IMG/VR virus record: IMGVR_UViG_3300033498_000048
Coordinates: 128,001 to 192,000 of that record
DNA length: 64,000 nucleotides
Strand: one strand, 5' to 3'
Origin: a virus
Lineage: Duplodnaviria > Caudoviricetes
Position 1 is the stretch's first letter. The number at the start of each line of letters is the position of its first letter. Below are positions 35,190 through 46,775 of this stretch, piece by piece. Below the pieces are notes generated by a model, which was not told the origin of the DNA, ran no database searches, and saw only the letters and a list, made by a program, of their open reading frames with translations. Made by a program: the position numbers and the translations under genes.

Positions 35190-36589
35190 TTTAGTGCAGC
35201 AAATTTGTTTTTCGGTTGCTGTGGAGTTGGTTGTTTACTATAATTGTGATTAGACACATTTTTTTGTTCTGAATCCATAACGTTATAGATTCGCTGGAGC
35301 ATTAAATCTAAACCTAATAGGAATTTTGAATTGGTGTTTTTATCACCATATCTGTTTTTTAACTGTTTTCCATGAATTTGATTTAATGCCACCAATTCTT
35401 CTGTTTGTGCTAGTGCTATGGCAAAATCCATAGTTGCTGCTACTGCAAGCGATTCGGATATATCAGACATTTCAGCATCCGTAGAACTTTGTGCAGCCCT
35501 ATTCAATTGGAATGCAGACCAACCCACAACATCTAACTCAATGAATAGTCCACGAACTTCTTCCGCAACTGCTTTTAAGTAAAAATAACTAGATGTGTTA
35601 GCTGCCTTTAATCTATAGCTTCCAACTAATCCAAGATAATCAACTAAAATTACTTTTGGGACAAAATTTTGTTTTAATTTTAAATCATTTAATAGTGATT
35701 TAAAGTGCATTACATTTGCAGACCCTGGAGGATATTGTTTTACTTTTATGCGTCCAAAACTAGATTCTTTTATCCTATCAATTTTGGACATATATCTAGT
35801 TCGACCATATTCAGCAAATGAATTTATTGGAATACCCAATACATTAGCATCTATCCGTTTCAATATTTGTTCTTCACTCATTTCCAATGATATGTATAAA
35901 ACATCGTAACCGAGTTTAGCATACATTCCAGCTAAGTAACATAAACTCAATGTTTTACCAACATTTATTCCACTTAATACTATGTTTAATGTTTTACTTT
36001 CAACTCCACCATTTGTAATTGTATTCAAAATGTTTATATCAAATGGGTGTTTGGACAATGGTTGTGTATAATAATCCCAACGTGCATTGGCATCATCTAA
36101 GAAATCCATTCCAACCTTAGTATCAAAACTAATTGATACTGCGTCACGAAGCATATCTGGAATCATAGTTGGTGGAGTTGTTTTATCATCTCCATCGTAT
36201 ATATTAATAGACTTCATAATAGCATTGTAAACGGCTTTATCTTGACAAAACTTTTCAGCTTGTTTTGCCAACCACGCAAAATCGCTAGGGGTTTCAATCT
36301 TGTGAACTTCCCTTACGATGTTTTGAGCTTGAGTCAATTCAATGTCATTTAACTTTGTATTCCGTAAATCAATTAACAAAGTTGTGGCATTTGGTTTTGT
36401 TTGATATTTGGAAATATAGCCAGCAATTGTTTCAAAAACTATTCTTTCCAATTTATCGTGGAAATACTCTGGTTTAATAAACGGTAATGCTTGTCCAATA
36501 AATTCAGTGTTTGTTATCAAACTTCCCAATATCAATTTTTCTGTTGATATATCCATACATAATCCTATTATAATTATTAAATAAAACAC
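35186..36589 (-). CDS. 41: Replicative helicase gp41
   Basis: EKFCQDKAVYNAI, GINVGKT, ISLEMSEE, IKVKQYP, VDYLGL, KAVAEEVRG, QLKNRY. Confidence 0.95.
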   Translation of the reverse strand: MFYLIIIIGLCMDISTEKLILGSLITNTEFIGQALPFIKPEYFHDKLERIVFETIAGYISKYQTKPNATTLLIDLRNTKLNDIELTQAQNIVREVHKIETPSDFAWLAKQAEKFCQDKAVYNAIMKSINIYDGDDKTTPPTMIPDMLRDAVSISFDTKVGMDFLDDANARWDYYTQPLSKHPFDINILNTITNGGVESKTLNIVLSGINVGKTLSLCYLAGMYAKLGYDVLYISLEMSEEQILKRIDANVLGIPINSFAEYGRTRYMSKIDRIKESSFGRIKVKQYPPGSANVMHFKSLLNDLKLKQNFVPKVILVDYLGLVGSYRLKAANTSSYFYLKAVAEEVRGLFIELDVVGWSAFQLNRAAQSSTDAEMSDISESLAVAATMDFAIALAQTEELVALNQIHGKQLKNRYGDKNTNSKFLLGLDLMLQRIYNVMDSEQKNVSNHNYSKQPTPQQPKNKFAALN

Positions 36590-36626
36590 AATTGGATATT
36601 TAACTTATTCCAATTGTGCATATACA

Positions 36627-38108
36627 TCAATCTATTTCATCTTCAATAACATCAATTGGAACAATACTACTTCCAAATAAATTCGCAGTTGATAATTTAA
36701 AATTGTCAATTACCCATTTTTTAAATGTTGGATTGTCTAATATCGGTGTCCAAAATTCAGAACAATCCGTTTCTTTTAATCTCCATTTTTTAGCTTCAAT
36801 TTCACCTGTATCAAATACTCTTGAATACCAACCTTGGACTGGTTTAATAACAAGCCCTGATTGTAACCCTAACTCAATCAATCCAGTGTAAGTCGATAAT
36901 CCACCATCAAATTTAACTGTAATCGGAATCTTTGATTTCTCTATAACTACTCTTGATTTCTCAACATTTACCACAAAATTATGTCCAATTAATTCTGTTC
37001 CATCTTTTTCTTGTTGTCTACCGATAATGAAAATTGTATCTGCGGAATAATATGGACCCGTATTATGCGTTACAACTCCATTTTCCAAAATATAATGTTC
37101 AGCTTCATAGACTGAAATATCATAAACTGGCAATTTACCAACTATATTAATTGATTTGACAATCCTTCCACTTGTTTTACCAATATACCCATTTGTTGTA
37201 ACTGGAGTATCAATTTTTAAATTTTTTGCCTCTGTCCAACCATCAATTGTTAAAAATGAATGATTGTTTGAACAAGTGACACTATATCCATCATCAAATT
37301 GAATCTCATAACATTCTGGAATGCCAATATGTAACGTATCAGGATTCCATATTGAAGTAACAACTTTATCACCAATCGCAGTTCTAACCTGTTCACCAAC
37401 TTTAATGTTTTGTATTTCTTTAAGAGTGTTGTCCGACATTTGAAGCTTTGTTCCCGACACTAAACAACCTCCACTAACAACTGCTTTTGAATAGATTTCC
37501 TGTGTTTGATAGATGTGTGCCACGATAACACATGGAATGTTCTTTATTTTCATATATGGAGTAATAATTCTAAAAAATGATTTAATCTGTTTAGCTCTGC
37601 TCATATCAGCAACAGATTTTTCATCTTTAGCATCATCAACTTCTTTTTTGGATGCTATATTTCCGATTGAGTCCACAACAAAGATTACTTTATCACCCCG
37701 TTCAATTCCTTCTAATTGGTTTACCATATCGAACTTCAATTCTTCCAAATTCAGGATTGGAATGTGCATTACTCTTCCCATATCAATTTCCAATGAATTG
37801 AAATAGTCTTTAGAAGTACCAAACTCACAATTGTAAAACATTAATACAGACTCAGGATATTTGTCCATGTATTTTTTAGCCATTATCAGGGAAAACATTG
37901 TTTTAAATGATTTCGATGCACCTGCTAATATTGTGATTCCAGGTGAAAAGCCACCATCGACATCTCCCGATAACAAAATATCGAGAGATGGAATCCCAGT
38001 GTGTACGACTTCAGTTTGATTAAAAAACTTAGAGTCCTTTAATATTTCCGTTGCTTTAATTGTTGAATTGCTTTTCAATCTGTCCATCAAGCTTGTTTTT
38101 GTAGCCAT
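36627..38108 (-). CDS. uvsX: UvsX RecA-like recombinase containing a mini-intein
   Basis: GASKSFKT, VVDSIGN.ASKKE, KSVADMSRAK, SGG|intein|TGPYYSAD. Confidence 0.95.
   Translation of the reverse strand: MATKTSLMDRLKSNSTIKATEILKDSKFFNQTEVVHTGIPSLDILLSGDVDGGFSPGITILAGASKSFKTMFSLIMAKKYMDKYPESVLMFYNCEFGTSKDYFNSLEIDMGRVMHIPILNLEELKFDMVNQLEGIERGDKVIFVVDSIGNIASKKEVDDAKDEKSVADMSRAKQIKSFFRIITPYMKIKNIPCVIVAHIYQTQEIYSKAVVSGGCLVSGTKLQMSDNTLKEIQNIKVGEQVRTAIGDKVVTSIWNPDTLHIGIPECYEIQFDDGYSVTCSNNHSFLTIDGWTEAKNLKIDTPVTTNGYIGKTSGRIVKSINIVGKLPVYDISVYEAEHYILENGVVTHNTGPYYSADTIFIIGRQQEKDGTELIGHNFVVNVEKSRVVIEKSKIPITVKFDGGLSTYTGLIELGLQSGLVIKPVQGWYSRVFDTGEIEAKKWRLKETDCSEFWTPILDNPTFKKWVIDNFKLSTANLFGSSIVPIDVIEDEID
37062..37466 (-). 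mobile_element. Cis mini-intein in UvsX (135 aa, Cys1...His-Asn, Thr+1)
   Basis: CLVSGT (block A), TCSNNH (block B), VYDISV...VTHN|T (blocks F/G); no endonuclease domain. Confidence 0.92.
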
Positions 38109-38140
38109 TATTTGTTCCTATAATCCATATCACACAACAA

Positions 38141-39205
38141 TCATATATTGGTTTTAAATTTAATTAATGAGCTTACTGGACGTAAACTACTAACTTCTTT
38201 TTTCTTGGTCTTAGGTTTAATTATATGTTGAGGTTCAACAACTGTCAATTCAGTAGTTTGTTTACGGAATTGATTTAAGTTATTAACTTTAACTGGACTC
38301 CAATTAACTAAATTTGTAAAACTTTCCAATGGTTTTAAGAATGTTTTATTGAATTGGGTTTCTTTATCAACATATTTGTCTAATCCAAATTCCTCTAACA
38401 ATTCATCTGTAAATGCTATTGCATTATTTAATGTTGGATTTTGTTTGATTAAATATAAATATCTAACTTTCATTCCATTGGTAATTAATTGATATTCTTT
38501 ATCTAGTCCATATTTAAATAACTGATTATTGTAGGTTAGGCTAGCTTTGACTTGGACTGGAGTTCCAGACTTCCACGAAAATTTGTTTCCATGTAAACCA
38601 ACATCACTCCAACCACCAATGTCATTTACTCCAGTTGGCTTTGCTATATCATACAAATCAAGCTTAGGGTACGCAGCTTTAAATGATTTAACACGTTGCT
38701 GTAGGTCAGCCTCAGTTCCGTTTAATATTAGCTTAAAACAGGCTTCCAGTTCATTTTTGACTATATTTGGAGTGCTTGTTCGAGCTGTTTCAACACCAAC
38801 TGACTTTAATTTTGGTTCCGCATAACGGACATTTTCATTGTCCCAAACTTGTAAAATGTAGTTCTTTTTCGCTCTCCAAATACCCCTATCACAAATCACT
38901 TCACGTTTCATCTTTAGTGTATTATCAATTGCGTTTAAATAATTTGATAATATCGCAAATTTTTCATCTATAAATGGAGTAACCACTTCATCCGAAAATT
39001 TACTTAAATAGTCCACAATAGTATTAGTTGGAGTGTTTTGTGGAACAACTCTTTCTATTAAATTATTTAATTCTAAATACGAGGAATTATGTAGTAATAC
39101 CCCATTACCAAAAAAGTTGTGACAATCAGCAACTTCAATATCATATACCCATTCTTCTTGTATTCCCAATGATTCGATTGTAAAATTATTTGTTTCTACA
39201 AGCAT
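38141..39205 (-). CDS. 43: DNA polymerase gp43 C-terminal fragment preceded by split-intein IntC
   Basis: 40-aa IntC, then SSYL..., KMKREVI, WRAKKNY, KLKSVGVETARTSTP. Confidence 0.95.
   Translation of the reverse strand: MLVETNNFTIESLGIQEEWVYDIEVADCHNFFGNGVLLHNSSYLELNNLIERVVPQNTPTNTIVDYLSKFSDEVVTPFIDEKFAILSNYLNAIDNTLKMKREVICDRGIWRAKKNYILQVWDNENVRYAEPKLKSVGVETARTSTPNIVKNELEACFKLILNGTEADLQQRVKSFKAAYPKLDLYDIAKPTGVNDIGGWSDVGLHGNKFSWKSGTPVQVKASLTYNNQLFKYGLDKEYQLITNGMKVRYLYLIKQNPTLNNAIAFTDELLEEFGLDKYVDKETQFNKTFLKPLESFTNLVNWSPVKVNNLNQFRKQTTELTVVEPQHIIKPKTKKKEVSSLRPVSSLIKFKTNI
39086..39205 (-). mobile_element. Split intein C-fragment (IntC, 40 aa, ends LLHN, Ser+1)
   Basis: MLVETNNFTIESLGIQEEWVYDIEVADCHNFFGNGVLLHN|S. 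Confidence 0.93.
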
Positions 39206-40241
39206 TAATATTCTCCTGTATTCTTTTTATTTCGGTTTCAAAAAAATTGATATAATCTGTTTCCCATATTATATCTACATAATATCCCAGTGAGCGTAAA
39301 TGGTTATTTTTTATGATGTCATTATCCCATATTTGTTTTGAATTAAGGCTTTTGTTATATGGGTTTGGAGTATCACTCTCGATAAACATTTTTGGATTGG
39401 CGTGAAATACATCACCATTAAACTCTAAACAATATTTAATATCAGTAATTACAAAATCATACTTAAAATATTTAAATTGCTTAGACTCTGAAACCATAGT
39501 AGAACCAAATTCATTTTTATGTTCAGCAAAATAACAATGTTCCCTTTCGACTTCTGTTAAAATATTATCGTAAATGTTCCAACATAAATTTTGGGACATT
39601 TTAGATGCGAATGTGTGTACAGAAGAAATGTAACGGTCATATCTAATCATACCATCAAGTTCACCATACCTATTAATAAAGTTTTGAATTGTGTTAGCCT
39701 TTTTGCTACAAACATCGTTATATTTTTTAACACCATCAGTATTACCGTATTTTTCAATATAATATGGTAATACCTTTCCATTATATTTTTGTTTATCGCA
39801 ATAACTTTTCCATTTTTTATGACCTACGGTTTCACCATATCTTAAAATCATATTATCTAATGTAACAGCTCTCGATTTGTTAAACTTTAAAAAATCAAGT
39901 TCGGTCATTCCAAATTTTTCTTTTTTATATTCAAATGAATTGGTATTTGCTTGCTTATCACAATATGACTTCCACTTTTTACTACCTAATTGATTACCAT
40001 ATCTTAATATCATATTGTCCAACGTTTGGCTTTTTTTAGTTCTTAATAACAAACATCTATCTAATAAGTCATCATGTAATATATTACCATCCATAAATCC
40101 AACAATATACCCACAAATTGATTGTATGGACCAGGTATTATCTAAAAAATGTTTCTTTATTCTTAAATACTCTGATAAGTAATATTCTTTATTAACATTA
40201 CCATCTAACTTCAATTTAAAATCTTTAAAATTAACTACCAT
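39186..40241 (-). mobile_element. Free-standing homing endonuclease, Vsr-like/EDxHD-type C-terminal domain with repeated RYG/KYG motifs
   Basis: YDF...LEFNGDVFHANP...DIIKN...LGY.V.IIWETD; lies between the two polymerase halves. Confidence 0.8.
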
Positions 40242-40298
40242 GTCACTGCCTCGTGTCTGTATAAAAATATATTTATGTAGACCTGAGGCAGTGACATA

Positions 40299-42647
40299 TT
40301 ACTTCATCAACTTGATAAACTTGTCTGTACTAATAACTTCAGTTGGTTTAATTGAAATGTTTTTTCCATCACGGTTTACTATTAATGAATGGTCTGCTGT
40401 ACAAATAATTTCAGTTCCATCTACTGTAATTTTAAACAATTCTTTTTTAACTTTGTGAGCCATAACGTATTTTATTGGATTTACAACTAATTTCCCGTTA
40501 ATATCTACTCCATACGCATTTAGATTAAATACTGGTTTAACGATATTGTCAATTTCATTTTTTACTGGAATTGTATTAATTGAATCAAATAAATTCCCTA
40601 TTTTCATATCACCACAATCCATTGAAATTACCGTATCACCAACAACGGAATCTGTATCGGAATAGATGACATAATCAACTCCATTAGTTTTAAACCTAGA
40701 ATTTAAAAACTCGTTTAATCGTTTAGCAATGTATAAGATTACAAGTTGTCCAGTTAGTGTAATACCTTCCGCCATATCATTTGAAGAATATCTGAATCCA
40801 GCGTTTCCACAAGACCCATAACACGAGTTGAGTGCTAATTTTAGGGCTATTTGCATAGCTTCGTGGAATGCCGAATCAGTATATAACTTTTCCAATTCGT
40901 TCTTCAATTCAGCATCCATTAAGTTTGCTAATTTAGTAGTACCACGTTTAGACAATTCGGTTTTAATGAGTTCTATTTTTTTATCAGCAGCTATTCGCAT
41001 CGTTTTATGCGAAACACGGTCATTAAACATTTCAGTGATAATTTCTGGAATGATACCAATTTTATCTTTTGAAAACATTGCCCCATTAGCTGCCATAGCA
41101 CAATTCAGCTTTTTTAAGTGTGCTGTATCTACATTTAAATCAATTAAATCTTCCACTAAATTTCCAGTAGCAGTCTTAACTAATGTTTCATAACTCACGT
41201 TTAACATTCGCATTATTGATGGATATAATGATGTTAAATCAAATGCGACAACCCATTTATATAAACCTGGAATTGGCTCTTTAACAAATGCTCCAGCATA
41301 TCCATCACTTGATTGTTTTTGTGGAGCGGGTGGGATTTGTATTCCTTTTTTTCTAAGTGCGTTATAAACTAAACATTCCCAGTTCTTGACTTGTCCAAAT
41401 ATTTCAGATTGTTTTACTTTACACATATACGCGATTGTTAATCCAATGAAAATGTAATTTAACTTCGCGTCCAACTTTCTAGGCAACCTAACGTCTTGGG
41501 TGTTATATTCTACAAATTTATTATAAGCATACTCTTTAATGTAATTATCAATCGTGAAATAAACATCAATCAATTCATTAGCATTTAGTTTATCCAAATC
41601 AACATTTAATATGTTAATATCAAATTTAGTTGTTTGGATGTAATCTAATTCAATTGGTAATTCTTTTCCATATTGTTGTTGGACACGTTCTTTAAATCTA
41701 CCAATTTTTAATATTTCTAAATCATTGTTTGATTTTAATGCTTTTTGGGATAGTATTCCATTATATAAATTGTGTAATGAACCAAATTCTGAATAATCAA
41801 CCTTCCGTTCTGATAATTCGACTAATGCAATATTATCTAATGAATAACTCCCAAGCTTTTGGGTACTAAACTTTTTATACATTTCGATATAGTCGTATGG
41901 AGAAATACCCAATATTTTATATCCCTTTTTTAAATTATCTAATTCAATTTCGGATATAACATTTCTAGCTTTTTTGTAAAATGGACTCAATCGGTCAGCC
42001 CACTGTTTACCCAATACTTTTTTTATTCGATTGATGATATAGGGAATATCAAATTCATTAATATTGAATCCTGTTATAATATCTGGTTCTATTTTAATCC
42101 ACTCATTAACGAATGTCATTAATAAATGCCGTTCATCGTCACATTCAATATATAATTCATCTGGATTACAATGACCAGTAAATGTTTTAGTTCCAATCGT
42201 TATATAGGTTGTATTATGTGCAAACGTTGCAAGTGTGATACTTGTTACTTCATTATCAGCAACATCTGGAGGTGAATATCCAAGTACAACATCAAATGCA
42301 ACTTCAATATCAAAGTTTAAAATGTTAATCTTTGTTATATCAAACTTTATTAAATCTGGATATTCAGTTGCAATGAATTGATGTGCTAAACTTGTTTGTC
42401 CGTGTATTTGACGATAGTTTCTGTTTTTGCGAATGTACTCATTAGTTTCTTTGACACTATTGAATCGTATGCTTGATAGTTTTTCACCCATAAATCCAAT
42501 TGCATCACCTTTACCCCTGTCACTTGGTACATATAAAACAAATGGGTAATTTTCTAATATTTCAGTCTGTCTTTTTTCTCCATCAAAAAACCTATGGAAT
42601 ATCTTATTTTCTTGCACTTCAACCGATGTGTAAAACTTTTCTGGCAT
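40299..42647 (-). CDS. 43: DNA polymerase gp43 N-terminal fragment ending in split-intein IntN
   Basis: FDIEV (ExoI), GFNINEFDIPY, FDLTSLYPS (motif A), KLALNSCYG (motif B), YSDTD|S (motif C). Confidence 0.95.
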   Translation of the reverse strand: MPEKFYTSVEVQENKIFHRFFDGEKRQTEILENYPFVLYVPSDRGKGDAIGFMGEKLSSIRFNSVKETNEYIRKNRNYRQIHGQTSLAHQFIATEYPDLIKFDITKINILNFDIEVAFDVVLGYSPPDVADNEVTSITLATFAHNTTYITIGTKTFTGHCNPDELYIECDDERHLLMTFVNEWIKIEPDIITGFNINEFDIPYIINRIKKVLGKQWADRLSPFYKKARNVISEIELDNLKKGYKILGISPYDYIEMYKKFSTQKLGSYSLDNIALVELSERKVDYSEFGSLHNLYNGILSQKALKSNNDLEILKIGRFKERVQQQYGKELPIELDYIQTTKFDINILNVDLDKLNANELIDVYFTIDNYIKEYAYNKFVEYNTQDVRLPRKLDAKLNYIFIGLTIAYMCKVKQSEIFGQVKNWECLVYNALRKKGIQIPPAPQKQSSDGYAGAFVKEPIPGLYKWVVAFDLTSLYPSIMRMLNVSYETLVKTATGNLVEDLIDLNVDTAHLKKLNCAMAANGAMFSKDKIGIIPEIITEMFNDRVSHKTMRIAADKKIELIKTELSKRGTTKLANLMDAELKNELEKLYTDSAFHEAMQIALKLALNSCYGSCGNAGFRYSSNDMAEGITLTGQLVILYIAKRLNEFLNSRFKTNGVDYVIYSDTDSVVGDTVISMDCGDMKIGNLFDSINTIPVKNEIDNIVKPVFNLNAYGVDINGKLVVNPIKYVMAHKVKKELFKITVDGTEIICTADHSLIVNRDGKNISIKPTEVISTDKFIKLMK
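40302..40649 (-). mobile_element. Split intein N-fragment (IntN, 116 aa, Ser1)
   Basis: SVVGDT (block A with Ser1), CTADHS (block B T-x-x-H), stop after KFIKLMK. Confidence 0.93.
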
Positions 42648-42648
42648 A

Positions 42649-42963
42649 TTAAATTAACTCCATTATTATATTCTTTATTATATCACCATGACATTTAAAC
42701 GGGGCGCAACAACACTCTAACAAGATTGTAATATCTGGGTTTAACCGTATTAGGTTAATGATACGATTAATTTCAATGGATTGTTGCGATGCTTCATTTA
42801 ATAACTTTTCTTGTAACCAATACTCATATAATTCTAGGACATCTTCTCTGGTATTGTTATCGTCTATTGGATATGGATTACCCAACACAGTTGGACGCAT
42901 AATATTAATGCGTGTTCCACTGCGAACCTTAGATTTGAACTTATTGATTACAATTATATTCAA
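42649..42963 (-). CDS. DUF4326-like protein
   Basis: I.RPT.LGNPY, Y..WL, L.C.CAP..CHGD.I. Confidence 0.75.
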   Translation of the reverse strand: MNIIVINKFKSKVRSGTRINIMRPTVLGNPYPIDDNNTREDVLELYEYWLQEKLLNEASQQSIEINRIINLIRLNPDITILLECCCAPFKCHGDIIKNIIMELI

Positions 42964-43247
42964 GTCAATATCATTCCACCATTATTTGGGACAATTAGAC
43001 CAGTTCCAAATTGTTTATTGTAATAATTTAAGATGTCTGTGATTGGAGTAAATGGACCAGCAATTATATCTTTCGATTGTATTGTTATTTCATTTTCAAT
43101 AAAAAAGTTTAATATATTAGCGAGTCCAGTTTGTTCGCCTTGTGAAACAATAGTAACTGGATTCTTAACCCTAATTGATTCTACATTAGTTTCAACTACT
43201 TCACCCATAATGACTCCGATATGGGTCATATAACATTGTACATTCAT
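42960..43247 (-). CDS. Conserved T4-like hypothetical protein (small beta-barrel)
   Basis: I.GEV...KNP motif; position upstream of gp43. Confidence 0.6.
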   Translation of the reverse strand: MNVQCYMTHIGVIMGEVVETNVESIRVKNPVTIVSQGEQTGLANILNFFIENEITIQSKDIIAGPFTPITDILNYYNKQFGTGLIVPNNGGMILT

Positions 43248-43249
43248 TT

Positions 43250-43867
43250 TTATGCTCCTGTGTGACCTAAGCCACCTTTTCTGTTTGTTTTTAATTTCGG
43301 TCTATCTTTTAATTCTTGGAACGTGTGCTGATTATATTCTACAATTTCAGCTTGTACTAGCCTTGAATCTTGTAAAATGTGTTGTTTAACTGCTGTCGTG
43401 TTTGTAATTAATATATAAACTGGTTCAACATAGTCCTCATCAATATACCCAACACAATTCGACAAATTTATTCCATTTTTAATAGAAACACCACTTCTTG
43501 AATACAGTTTCATAACGAAACCTTGTGGAATATCAAATATTAAATTTGTTGGGATAATTGCCCTATCTCCAGGATTTAACAAGACTCCAACCATATTATT
43601 AACTTCTATGTGATGTCTAACTGACCGTTGGATTTCAACATTCATTTCATCATAAACTGTAACAGTTGGTATTCCACCAAAATCGGTATATAAATCAAAA
43701 CAACCCGATTTTAATGTTCCGTATTTTGGAATTTTAGCACTATCACTAACTTTAAACACACCAACACCCTTTGGTACTGGACAGGTGTTTGTGTTGGGTT
43801 CAAATAATAGTTCCCCCAAATCGGTTACTTCTGGTTGAGTTGTTTTGCCTTTTTTAACTTCTGTCAT
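43250..43867 (-). CDS. dut: dUTPase (trimeric type)
   Basis: SGCFDL, YSRSG, GYIDEDY, RLVQAE, RKGGLGHTG. Confidence 0.9.
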   Translation of the reverse strand: MTEVKKGKTTQPEVTDLGELLFEPNTNTCPVPKGVGVFKVSDSAKIPKYGTLKSGCFDLYTDFGGIPTVTVYDEMNVEIQRSVRHHIEVNNMVGVLLNPGDRAIIPTNLIFDIPQGFVMKLYSRSGVSIKNGINLSNCVGYIDEDYVEPVYILITNTTAVKQHILQDSRLVQAEIVEYNQHTFQELKDRPKLKTNRKGGLGHTGA

Positions 43868-44327
43868 GTCTTTCTCCTACGGTATATTTTGACATTAATT
43901 TCCATTGTGATTTCTCACTATATGATAAAACGCACAATTTAATTTTGTTTGTGTTGTTTTTTAATACACTCAATGGAGTAATCAATTTCCATTGCATTAA
44001 TAACTTTGATATGTTTTTTAATCTATCAATATCATCGTGTGAAACGATGGTTTTAGATGTTTTTCCATCCAATAGAAACAGGTGTTTGAAGTGTACAATA
44101 AAGTATCTTCCTTGTTTATGTAAAAGGTGACAAGATTGCCACAATATTGGAACACCATTTACATCTTGATAATATGATACAACTCCCATCCTTGTAAGTG
44201 TTTCACACACTTTTAGGAAATCGTCCGTACTTAATGGTGCTACTTCAATAGCAGTTCTTAAGATATTCAAATCATTATTGGTTATCACAATTTCTCCATT
44301 ATTTAATTTTTTTATTAACTTTGCCAC
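43854..44327 (-). CDS. regA: Translational repressor RegA
   Basis: DDFLKVCETLTRMG, LWQSCHLLHKQGRYFIVHFKHLFLLDGK. Confidence 0.92.
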   Translation of the reverse strand: MAKLIKKLNNGEIVITNNDLNILRTAIEVAPLSTDDFLKVCETLTRMGVVSYYQDVNGVPILWQSCHLLHKQGRYFIVHFKHLFLLDGKTSKTIVSHDDIDRLKNISKLLMQWKLITPLSVLKNNTNKIKLCVLSYSEKSQWKLMSKYTVGERHDRS

Positions 44328-44715
44328 CCTCTAACAATAATGAGTCCAAATAGGACTCATGTTGTTTTAATATTGGCACAACTTCTTTTGCTTTAGTGTA
44401 TGAATAACCATACACTCGCTGTATTTTATCAATTAATACTGTATCGTCAATATTTTTATTCCACTTGGAATACCGTTTTCGTTTTGGTATAACATGGAAT
44501 AAAAATGTGTATTGCATTTGAATGTCCATTTCAAATCTGATATTCAATTCATTCACAAGTAAAGCCGTATCTCGATATTGAGATAGTGCTTTATTAATCA
44601 TAAATGGATTATACTCAGCAGTTAATTGTTCTTCAATTAATTCTGTTTTTCCATTTGTGATATTGTTCACAATATCAAATAAACCTAAAGATGGTTGGTT
44701 GTCCAATGTACTCAT
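44299..44715 (-). CDS. 62: Clamp loader small subunit gp62
   Basis: YNPFMINKALSQ..DT...VNELN, KRKRYSKW, YGYS..KA.EV. Confidence 0.9.
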   Translation of the reverse strand: MSTLDNQPSLGLFDIVNNITNGKTELIEEQLTAEYNPFMINKALSQYRDTALLVNELNIRFEMDIQMQYTFLFHVIPKRKRYSKWNKNIDDTVLIDKIQRVYGYSYTKAKEVVPILKQHESYLDSLLLEGGKVNKKIK

Positions 44716-46106
44716 TTGAACTCCAAATCCCGCATTAACTCGGTTAGCATTGCAACTATATTCAATTCTTTATCGGAAACAAAGTTTGACTTATAATCAT
44801 AATCTGATAACGTTAGTACCAATTGTGGTAACGAACTTGGAATAACATAATCTGGGGCTTTAAGATAAATTGCTCTTGATAATGTCATTTGGGAATTGTC
44901 TAAATTACTAACAACCCATTTTCTAACCTCGTTCCATTTACTGGGGTCTCTTAAATATGTAAACAACTCATCAATATTAGCATCTGATAAACTTGTTAAT
45001 ACGAGTTCGTCCAACCTGTTATTGACCATTGATAATTGTTGTAACGTTGTTGTGATTTTTCGCATATCTGGAAAATGCGTTGTTATTACCTTCGCAACAA
45101 CATTCCTATCATATTCAACTCCCTCATGGTCTAATATTTCTAGCATTCTTTTTTCAAGTGGGAGTATCACTTCCATTTTTTCAGCTTTAGTAAGTGCAAA
45201 GTCAACAACTGCACACCTACTTTTTAATGGACCCATAATTCTATTGCTAAAATTGGCAGTCAATATAAACCTACAGTTTGCACTATAGGTTTCCATAAAG
45301 TTTCTTAATGCAGGTTGTGTGCTATTACAATTGTGAGCTACTACACCATTTTCCAAAATGAAATTGTGATTATCATCATTAGTAGTCAAATCATAAACTG
45401 GTAACATTCCCAATGATTCCATCGACACAATGGTTTTTGTTTTTCCATTGGAATCAACAAGCTTATCACCAATTTTGATACCATCCTTTTTTTCTGATAC
45501 TCCACAATATCCATTTATTGATTCAATGGTGTAAAAAGGATGGTCTTTTGTGCAATACATTCTTGAATAATCATCAAATTGTACAATGTACACTTCGCCT
45601 ATTCCCGACTTGAATACGAATGCTTCTGCTGTGTATTGTTCACCTGTTGTTGTGTTATATGATAATATATTAACTGTTTTATCATAAATTGAATCAAATG
45701 ACTTTAATTCTGGAACACCATCTATATTCACAGTGTAAATATGTTGGTTTCCAGCAAAACAATTTAAATAATCGGCTTCATCTAATAATACTACTTTATA
45801 TCCACCTCTATTCTTCATACTAACGGTGCTAGCATAACGTTCAATCGTAGTTCGGAGCGTATCAATGTTCCCATCTTTCGAGGCATTGATTTCCAGTAAG
45901 TCAATGCCCATATCACTACACAACGCTCTTGGAATTGTGGTTTTTCCAACACCCTGATAACCAGTGAACAACATATTTGTTATTTGTCCACTGTCAATAA
46001 TAGCTTGAAAATAGTTTTTTAATCTCGATGGTAAAATAACATTAGCCATCGTTCTTGGACGAAACTTCTCAGCCCAAAGTGGTTGATTCGGAGTAATATC
46101 CAACAT
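44712..46106 (-). CDS. 44: Clamp loader large subunit gp44 containing a mini-intein
   Basis: WAEKFRP, GYQGVGKTT, LDEADYLN|intein|CNSTQPALR, LKSRC, FPDMRK. Confidence 0.95.
   Translation of the reverse strand: MLDITPNQPLWAEKFRPRTMANVILPSRLKNYFQAIIDSGQITNMLFTGYQGVGKTTIPRALCSDMGIDLLEINASKDGNIDTLRTTIERYASTVSMKNRGGYKVVLLDEADYLNCFAGNQHIYTVNIDGVPELKSFDSIYDKTVNILSYNTTTGEQYTAEAFVFKSGIGEVYIVQFDDYSRMYCTKDHPFYTIESINGYCGVSEKKDGIKIGDKLVDSNGKTKTIVSMESLGMLPVYDLTTNDDNHNFILENGVVAHNCNSTQPALRNFMETYSANCRFILTANFSNRIMGPLKSRCAVVDFALTKAEKMEVILPLEKRMLEILDHEGVEYDRNVVAKVITTHFPDMRKITTTLQQLSMVNNRLDELVLTSLSDANIDELFTYLRDPSKWNEVRKWVVSNLDNSQMTLSRAIYLKAPDYVIPSSLPQLVLTLSDYDYKSNFVSDKELNIVAMLTELMRDLEFK
45330..45761 (-). mobile_element. 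Cis mini-intein in gp44 (144 aa, Cys1...His-Asn, Cys+1)
   Basis: CFAGNQ (block A), CTKDHP (block B), VYDLT...VAHN|C; no endonuclease domain. Confidence 0.92.
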
Positions 46107-46121
46107 TATATAACCTCAATA

Positions 46122-46775
46122 TTAAGATTCTAGTGAAATGAAATATTCAAGATGTCCAGATTCAGATACAAATCTTGACATATCCCCAACATCCACAATA
46201 TAGTTTTGTGGAATTAATTTTAAGTATTGAATTGCAAGTTCAAATGAAAACTCACCTTGCATCTTTTTATTAAAATCAATTTCAATTAATAATTGATTTC
46301 CACTTGGATCCAACTTATTAAACACTTTTAATCCATCATTAGTGATTGCTAGGTGGGATAATGATAGGATGCTTGATGTCTTTAATATCTGTTCTAACAC
46401 TTCTTTTGTTAGTAAAAATGACACACTTTTTTGTTCTTCAGTCATTTCAATATCAACTGTCCACCCAGAGTTGAGTATTAAATTTTGAGGACTTGGAACA
46501 TACTTAACAGTATTTTTACCCTCAGAAATATTAAACGGAATATGTGACTCTGTGAATGTTATTTCTGGGTCATTAAAAGTGCTTAACGTATTCAACAGCT
46601 CAGATAATTCAAAGATGTTGAAGTCTACTGGAAAGGTTTCCTCGATATACGCTGTAACATATATGTGGTCTAATACTGACATTGTTTTTATCACATTTCC
46701 AGATTTGAATACGATTCCTGGATTTATGGTATTAAGATTTTTTAATATATCTCGTGTTGCTTTGCTCAATTTCAT
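46122..46775 (-). CDS. 45: Sliding clamp gp45
   Basis: MKLSKAT..ILKNL..IN.GIVFK.G; F.I..L.E.L..LS.F; 45-44-62-regA synteny. Confidence 0.9.
   Translation of the reverse strand: MKLSKATRDILKNLNTINPGIVFKSGNVIKTMSVLDHIYVTAYIEETFPVDFNIFELSELLNTLSTFNDPEITFTESHIPFNISEGKNTVKYVPSPQNLILNSGWTVDIEMTEEQKSVSFLLTKEVLEQILKTSSILSLSHLAITNDGLKVFNKLDPSGNQLLIEIDFNKKMQGEFSFELAIQYLKLIPQNYIVDVGDMSRFVSESGHLEYFISLES

Follow-up and report, generated by a model that had tools for sequence, protein, structure and literature searches.

Three genes at the polB locus

We analyzed a 64,000-nucleotide stretch of DNA (the window; positions 128,001 to 192,000 of IMG/VR record IMGVR_UViG_3300033498_000048) and, within it, a gene for a T4-type family-B DNA polymerase (PolB, gp43-like) that is broken by a split intein. 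The record is the complete 305,782-bp virus record of an uncultured T4-like jumbo phage, with terminal repeats and an estimated completeness of 100%. The listing of open reading frames (ORFs) revealed three consecutive minus-strand ORFs of 782, 351 and 354 amino acids (aa) at window positions 38141-42647. The first encodes the N-terminal part of the polymerase and the N-terminal intein half (IntN), the second a putative endonuclease, and the third the C-terminal intein half (IntC) and the rest of the polymerase. The features of the locus are as follows.

40299-42647, minus strand: ORF of PolB-N and IntN, 782 aa; Pfam matches to DNA_pol_B_exo1 and DNA_pol_B, and a sub-threshold Intein_splicing match at residues 717-768
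40650-42647, minus strand: N-extein of PolB, 666 aa; comprises the exonuclease domain and the palm/fingers as far as motif C, with YSDTD as its last residues
40302-40649, minus strand: IntN, 116 aa, starting SVVGDT; its stop codon is at 40299-40301
40239-40298, minus strand: RNA hairpin, in the 57-nt spacer that separates the stop of IntN from the endonuclease start
39186-40241, minus strand: endonuclease ORF, 351 aa; its sole Pfam match is weak (Vsr-type MTES_1575) and below the cut-off
39186-40241, minus strand: putative free-standing homing endonuclease; about 210 aa of N-terminal helical repeats, then a C-terminal Vsr-like domain (residues ~211-350)
39213-39217, minus strand: AGGAG Shine-Dalgarno sequence of the IntC ORF, 7 nt before the ATG and within the 3'-terminal part of the endonuclease ORF
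38141-39205, minus strand: ORF of IntC and PolB-C, 354 aa; Pfam Intein_splicing, last 25 profile positions (131-155), at residues 16-40
39086-39205, minus strand: IntC, 40 aa, including blocks F and G and ending LLHN (His39-Asn40); it shares its first 20 nt (39186-39205) with the endonuclease ORF
38141-39085, minus strand: C-extein of PolB, 314 aa plus stop, starting at Ser+1 (SSYLELNN); remaining palm and thumb

Two host-gene ORFs on the same strand, each with one intein half, thus enclose a free-standing endonuclease ORF, which is the arrangement of a fractured gene. An earlier sequence-only reading had described the locus in these terms; the three-ORF order, the hairpin and the 20-nt overlap bear it out, and junctions located by script reproduced its coordinates, lengths and motifs exactly (116-aa IntN, 40-aa IntC, DTD/S and LLHN/SSYL). 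The locus is a fairly divergent PolB1-type Ser1/Ser+1 split intein within a textbook fractured-gene arrangement, and not a new mechanism.

The intein halves and their splicing residues

Searches with phmmer matched IntN over its whole length to the crystal structure of the Aes123 PolB1 intein (PDB 9HTH, E 5.9e-21) and the IntC region to residues 129-171 of the same entry (E 5.9e-07). Judged from these alignments, the homology of both halves to the Aes123 PolB1 intein is far beyond chance. All residues of class-1 splicing are present, namely Ser1, T84-A-D-H87, the histidine of the NX motif, H29, His39-Asn40 and Ser+1. Ser1 stands immediately after DTD, at the place of the N-terminal nucleophile of class-1 inteins, and T84-A-D-H87 of block B aligns with TADH of Aes123. 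Block F of IntC reads VYDIEVADCHNFF and is followed by LLHN and then by Ser+1. Nine IntC positions are invariant in 39 homologues, and the window copy keeps every one of them (G14, V20, Y21, D22, E24, H29, F31, H39 and N40); Ser+1 is found in 37 of the 39. The NX histidine (KYVMAHKVKK) aligns with MKH of Aes123 and with four other relatives. Such a histidine has been reported as a signature of inteins with Ser1 (oxyester inteins; PMC10189870); it is a regularity that describes them and no criterion of membership.

The intein of the window is not literally cysteine-less. IntN contains Cys12 and Cys83 and IntC contains Cys28, none of them at a nucleophile position, as the sequence-only reading had said in assigning serine nucleophiles to both junctions. 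The well-known gp41-1 type intein uses Cys1.

Docking of the two halves was predicted with IntN carrying nine N-extein residues and IntC carrying 15 C-extein residues. The predicted score was 0.79, against 0.00 for the best control, with a contact agreement of at least 87% between runs and a partner predicted local distance difference test (pLDDT) score of at least 72. Among solved complexes, 51 of 78 reached the mark used, and among mismatched pairs, 2 of 108. Since many intein structures have been solved, a pass indicates likeness to solved inteins and may come from the memory of the model; it is no proof that the window copy binds or splices.

Comparison with Aes123 PolB1

The Aes123 PolB1 intein is a naturally split, cysteine-less, trans-splicing intein of T4-like Aeromonas salmonicida phages, with halves of 120 aa (AesN) and 39 aa (AesC), and the CL and CLm inteins are engineered forms of it (PMC11923092). 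The resemblance that the sequence-only reading had pointed out is therefore confirmed both by the matches of the two halves to 9HTH and by the split, cysteine-less nature of Aes123 in that report. The two systems share a gp43-type PolB, insertion at DTD/S, a split at the endonuclease position, and Ser1 with Ser+1. The insertion site reads YIDTD/SVVGDT...VHN/SVYL in Aes123 and YSDTD/SVVGDT...LLHN/SSYL in the window, and the fragments are alike in size (120+39 aa and 116+40 aa). GenBank gives the same gene order for Aes123, with gp43B1 ("includes putative N-intein"), a "putative VSR endonuclease" and gp43B2 ("includes putative C-intein"), and there too the Vsr-like endonuclease ORF overlaps the IntC ORF. 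Identity to the window is 41.7% for IntN, 55% for IntC and 33% for the endonuclease in Aes123, and 53%, 65% and 49%, respectively, in L010, the nearest metagenomic relative.

The two loci also differ. The window intein has three non-catalytic cysteines and Ala-His in its NX motif, whereas Aes123 is cysteine-less with Lys-His. In Aes123 the IntN and endonuclease ORFs overlap, whereas in the window the 57-nt hairpin spacer separates them. Finally, Aes123 polB has an additional, intein-free split (gp43A/gp43B1) that is absent from the window.

The polymerase exteins abut within motif C

The N-extein matched the Pfam families DNA_pol_B_exo1 (7e-22) and DNA_pol_B (4.5e-29). In phmmer searches of PDB sequences, RB69 gp43 residues 3-627 aligned to the N piece (E 4e-79; sdtds of the query over gdtds of RB69) and residues 623-887 aligned to C-piece residues 40-300 (E 4.6e-32; nssyl over dsiyv). 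The last residue of the N-extein therefore corresponds to D623 and the first of the C-extein to S624, so that the exteins abut at RB69 D623/S624 without gap or overlap. Uninterrupted relatives read NDTDSAYIR or GDTDSIYL at the insertion site. From these alignments, splicing would restore the DTDS motif (YSDTD-SSYL) within catalytic motif C; the junction DTDSSYL proposed by the sequence-only reading agrees with the exact abutment on RB69 gp43, given that splicing occurs.

These results bear on the possibility that the two pieces work as a two-subunit polymerase without covalent joining. In that case the intein halves would be a non-covalent dimerization handle or irrelevant, and the enzyme would resemble the intein-less gp43A/gp43B of some Aeromonas phages. 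Such enzymes have precedents, since split T4-like polymerases and a split NrdA that work without splicing are described (Dassa et al. 2009, PMC2677866; PMC3045599), and Aes123 itself has the extra intein-free split gp43A/gp43B1. In the window, however, it is catalytic motif C that is interrupted, between the equivalents of RB69 D623 and S624, and an unspliced complex would bear a 156-aa HINT domain at the active site. Full conservation of the splicing residues is not expected for a mere handle, and the homologous Aes123 intein does splice (PMC11923092). We therefore regard a two-subunit enzyme as improbable.

The N-terminal part of PolB is a single 666-aa piece in the window. An extra intein-free split further upstream (gp43A/gp43B) is found in Aes123, in the metagenomic contigs L011 and L012 and apparently in L010, and many database homologues of 404-426 aa start at this upstream split.

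The endonuclease gene

More than 160 homologues of the endonuclease ORF were found in metagenomes, under the name of very-short-patch-repair endonucleases in some sources. When PDB sequences were searched with a profile of six endonuclease sequences, there was no match. A structure model was needed for the link to Vsr and I-Bth0305I. The AlphaFold2 model, built on 57 homologues, had a mean pLDDT of 94.8. Foldseek searches with this model gave no match at E <=0.001; their top rows included Vsr (1cw0_A, probability 0.99) and I-Bth0305I. VIA-align, run on Foldseek's own candidates, gave the following matches, which cover model residues ~211-350 (Z score; root-mean-square deviation, rmsd; aligned residues).

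3hrl, putative endonuclease-like protein: Z 11.3, rmsd 2.0 Å, 94 aligned
1cw0_A, Vsr endonuclease: Z 11.2, rmsd 3.2 Å, 117 aligned
3r3p_A, catalytic domain of I-Bth0305I: Z 10.9, rmsd 2.5 Å, 97/97 aligned

D262, E273, G276 and H280 are invariant in the 57 homologues, D308 is kept in at least 90% of them, and D277 is invariant in the six-sequence alignment. As aligned, the conserved residues fit the EDxHD catalytic set of I-Bth0305I (PMC3239194), where their counterparts, mapped by motif order, would be D196, H213 and D222. Residues 1-210 are helical, with three repeats of ~45 aa (TL-x-N/K-x-I-x-R/K-YG; RYG/KYG-type), and Pfam gave no match to NUMOD families in these repeats. The endonuclease belongs to the "new homing endonuclease family" of Dassa et al. 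2009 (PMC2677866). P0117, a further protein of 551 aa, has Pfam domains of both PolB and intein type, and its alignment covers 87% of the endonuclease with 37% identity. Perhaps IntN and endonuclease are fused in frame in this protein, which would represent an intermediate of the fracture and fusion model.

The hairpin, the ORF overlap and the question of RNA joining

For the hairpin formed by the 57-nt spacer, the minimum free energy is -35.1 kcal/mol, compared to -14.7 +/- 3 for shuffled sequences (z -6.8; 0 of 200 shuffles as good). Its outer stem is a perfect 14 bp, and the 3' arm holds the GAGG Shine-Dalgarno sequence and the AUG of the endonuclease gene. The loop carries CATAAATA, which matches the T4 late-promoter core at 7 of 8 positions; the hairpin of L010 is similar and has the exact TATAAATA. 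Sub-threshold Rfam matches to miRNA precursors at the hairpin, on both strands, are consistent with a long hairpin. Scans for sigma-70 promoters and terminators gave results no better than those for shuffled sequences.

In the data of Dassa et al. 2009, 15 of 16 endonuclease leaders had a hairpin, in ten cases with a late-promoter element, and endonuclease/IntC overlaps measured 6-69 bp in 15 loci (PMC2677866). By analogy with Aeh1 mobE, they read the hairpins as translational sequestration that is relieved on late transcripts (PMC2677866). By the same analogy, we infer that the hairpin of the window may sequester the ribosome-binding site and start codon of the endonuclease gene on read-through mRNA.

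A quite different account would be joining at the RNA level, by an intron or by bypassing, with removal of the intervening region. The sequence-only reading had itself named this as the competing outcome, and endonucleases of this family also occur in group I introns, I-Bth0305I being an example. An Rfam scan of 36000-46500 with E up to 1 found no intron family and returned one snoRNA-like chance match. Moreover, the intein halves encoded in frame on both sides of the endonuclease gene are homologous to an intein whose split nature is proven, and the ORFs of these halves have their own stop codon, Shine-Dalgarno sequence and start codon. The likelihood of RNA-level joining is close to negligible.

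Relatives and distribution of the element

Megablast of the locus against GenBank phages gave no match, and pattern scans of IMG/VR found no relative; close relatives turned up only in protein databases. Even the nearest relative reaches no more than ~50% identity, with saturation at synonymous sites. Among the sequencing runs listed as containing the sequence there is none of RNA, and the one DNA run that contains it in full is a microbial-mat metagenome, which may be its source. Four members of the family have been studied biochemically: Aes123 PolB1, CP21 PolB1, LCGC14 PolB2 and GOM-OPS-1 PolB2 (PMC12707363). CP21, LCGC14 and GOM-OPS-1 are Ser1/Ser+1 inteins, typically split, in T4-like phage PolB, and each has a Cys outside the conserved positions as well as the NX histidine (PMC12707363). 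Their non-nucleophile cysteines present the same situation as in the window intein, and the fragment lengths of this group (120/42, 120/46 and 115/39 aa) compare with 116/40 aa in the window. IntN of the window is 39.5% identical to that of CP21 (tblastn).

Campylobacter phage CP21 has the same three-ORF layout as the window, as does Tenacibaculum phage PTm1, where GenBank annotates an "intein-containing split DNA polymerase precursor" and a "VSR endonuclease". The layout recurs in L010, L011 and L012, with shared synteny of clamp loader, regA, dUTPase, polB, uvsX and helicase genes and with endonuclease/IntC overlaps of 20, 23 and 49 nt, respectively. The fractured genes of Dassa et al. likewise share with the window the order on one strand, a hairpin with late-promoter-like sequence at the endonuclease start, the ORF overlap and the Vsr-like fold (PMC2677866; I-Bth0305I, PMC3239194). 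Neq Pol, from the PolB of Nanoarchaeum equitans, is also a natural split intein in a family-B polymerase and is classed with the cysteine-less split inteins (PMC10189870). Unlike the window intein, it is thermophilic and has its halves at distant loci with no intervening endonuclease (step IV of the Dassa model, PMC2677866); PDB searches with the window ORFs gave no detectable sequence match to it.

We tallied the insertion site in 92 database homologues of the C piece, the window's own protein included. Thirty-nine of the 92 begin with IntC (37 with Ser+1, 2 with Thr+1), at least 4 have a contiguous mini-intein of 155-162 aa at DTD/S, and 37 have an uninterrupted DTDS, among them extein relatives at 51-53% identity. 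As read from these sequences, a mobile intein-endonuclease element would be predicted to leave just such a patchy distribution over three states, which also matches the gene-breaking steps of Dassa et al. Dozens of further PolB1-type members are present in public data without annotation, and the arrangement is common in metagenomes, where 38 protein clusters besides that of the window show it.

In L012 (4518-7077) the same fractured layout occurs with the intein two residues upstream (GD/SVTGDT...VHN/TDSIF, Thr+1), so that a second insertion point exists within the same DTDS motif; this upstream insertion was found in 2 of the 39 IntC-bearing clusters. In L011 (3569-4996), which is binned as Flavobacterium, IntN is followed by a tail of ~30 aa with IANDTDT, resembling VANDTD of the N-extein. 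This tail may be a remnant of a duplicated target site at the endonuclease border.

Other inteins in the same genome

Two contiguous mini-inteins were found near the polB locus. The UvsX/RecA-like recombinase gene (window 36627-38108, minus strand) contains one of 135 aa at ~37062-37466 (GG/CLVSGTK...VTHN/TGPYY; Cys1, Thr+1), and the UvsX proteins of L010, L011 and L012 (357-360 aa) have no intein. The gene for the gp44-like clamp-loader ATPase (window 44712-46106, minus strand) contains one of 144 aa at ~45330-45761 (DYLN/CFAGNQ...VAHN/CNSTQ; Cys1, Cys+1). With the split PolB intein, the replication module thus contains three inteins in a stretch of 10 kb. A further Pfam Intein_splicing match lies ~16 kb past the end of the window, in a 449-aa frame (G000:C1:207955-208062).

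Proposed mechanism

We propose that the polB locus is a fractured T4-type polymerase gene whose product is rejoined by split-intein trans-splicing, together with a mobile endonuclease element, and we consider this highly probable. The anatomy, homology, conserved residues, hairpin, predicted fold and predicted docking come directly from the analysis, and from them we infer the splicing activity, the activity and target of the endonuclease, and the timing of expression. The mobile element, a mini-intein with a free-standing gene for a Vsr-like EDxHD-type endonuclease, would occupy the codons of the YxDTD/S motif. The phage would make two polypeptides, PolB-N with IntN and IntC with PolB-C, the latter from an ORF that would be translated from its own AGGAG within the 3' end of the endonuclease gene. 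Both intein halves would then associate into a single HINT fold, and class-1 trans-splicing would proceed through oxyesters, with an N-O shift at Ser1, transesterification to Ser+1, cyclization of Asn40 and an O-N shift. The predicted products are a contiguous 980-aa polymerase with an intact DTDS and the excised intein halves. On read-through mRNA, the hairpin that buries the ribosome-binding site and start codon would silence the endonuclease gene. When it is made, the enzyme presumably cleaves polB alleles that lack the element in co-infecting relatives, by which the element would spread.

Three observations weigh against this proposal or parts of it. Ala precedes the NX histidine in the window, whereas Lys or Arg does so in all five aligned relatives, and a basic residue is "invariably" present at this position in a 58-sequence Ser1 set (PMC10189870); the Ala-His variant could reduce splicing activity. 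Wild-type Aes123 splices only ~30% in vitro because its IntN aggregates (PMC11923092), and homology is therefore no guarantee of efficient splicing. Finally, the window shows no enrichment of TATAAATA, of which the hairpin carries a copy with one mismatch, so that late-promoter control of the endonuclease is only an analogy with Aeh1 mobE as Dassa et al. describe it.

The Ala-His variant would also suit a decaying remnant, with an intein or polymerase that no longer works and a phage that is defective or depends on something else, and the record is a metagenome-assembled genome without an isolate. Yet the three ORFs are open and of full length, with intact catalytic residues in the intein, the endonuclease and the polymerase alike. 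A search of the complete record gave no match to a second family-B polymerase, in a genome with terminal repeats and 100% estimated completeness. Decay is thus a very improbable explanation, and trans-splicing of a fractured polymerase is the reading that we retain.

Significance

Current understanding is unchanged by the window locus. CLm and LCGC14 are the only highly efficient ambient-temperature cysteine-less split inteins named in the literature consulted. Such inteins are scarce, and it is reasonable to include a further divergent natural member at the PolB site in screens. To this extent the sequence-only reading was justified in suggesting a protein-engineering tool, in a family that already has four biochemically studied members. 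The low identity to Aes123/CLm and the Ala-His NX motif allow the conjecture, which we consider doubtful, that the window holds a naturally efficient Ser1/Ser+1 split intein orthogonal to CLm and LCGC14. If true, it would provide a third thiol-independent ligation handle once the three cysteines are replaced.

The Ala-His variant offers a natural test of how strict the requirement for a basic residue in the NX motif is. For the phage, the earlier suggestion that replication is dependent on trans-splicing gains from the single family-B polymerase of the complete record; the dependence itself stays conditional, and this jumbo T4-like phage would then rely on trans-splicing within the catalytic motif of its only replicative polymerase. 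More speculatively, the build-up of inteins in the replication and packaging proteins of this phage could reflect post-translational gating of the infection cycle and not mere parasitism. The polB site occurs in three states, unoccupied, with a contiguous mini-intein, and split with an endonuclease gene, and it is therefore a good system for the gene-fracturing pathway of Dassa et al.

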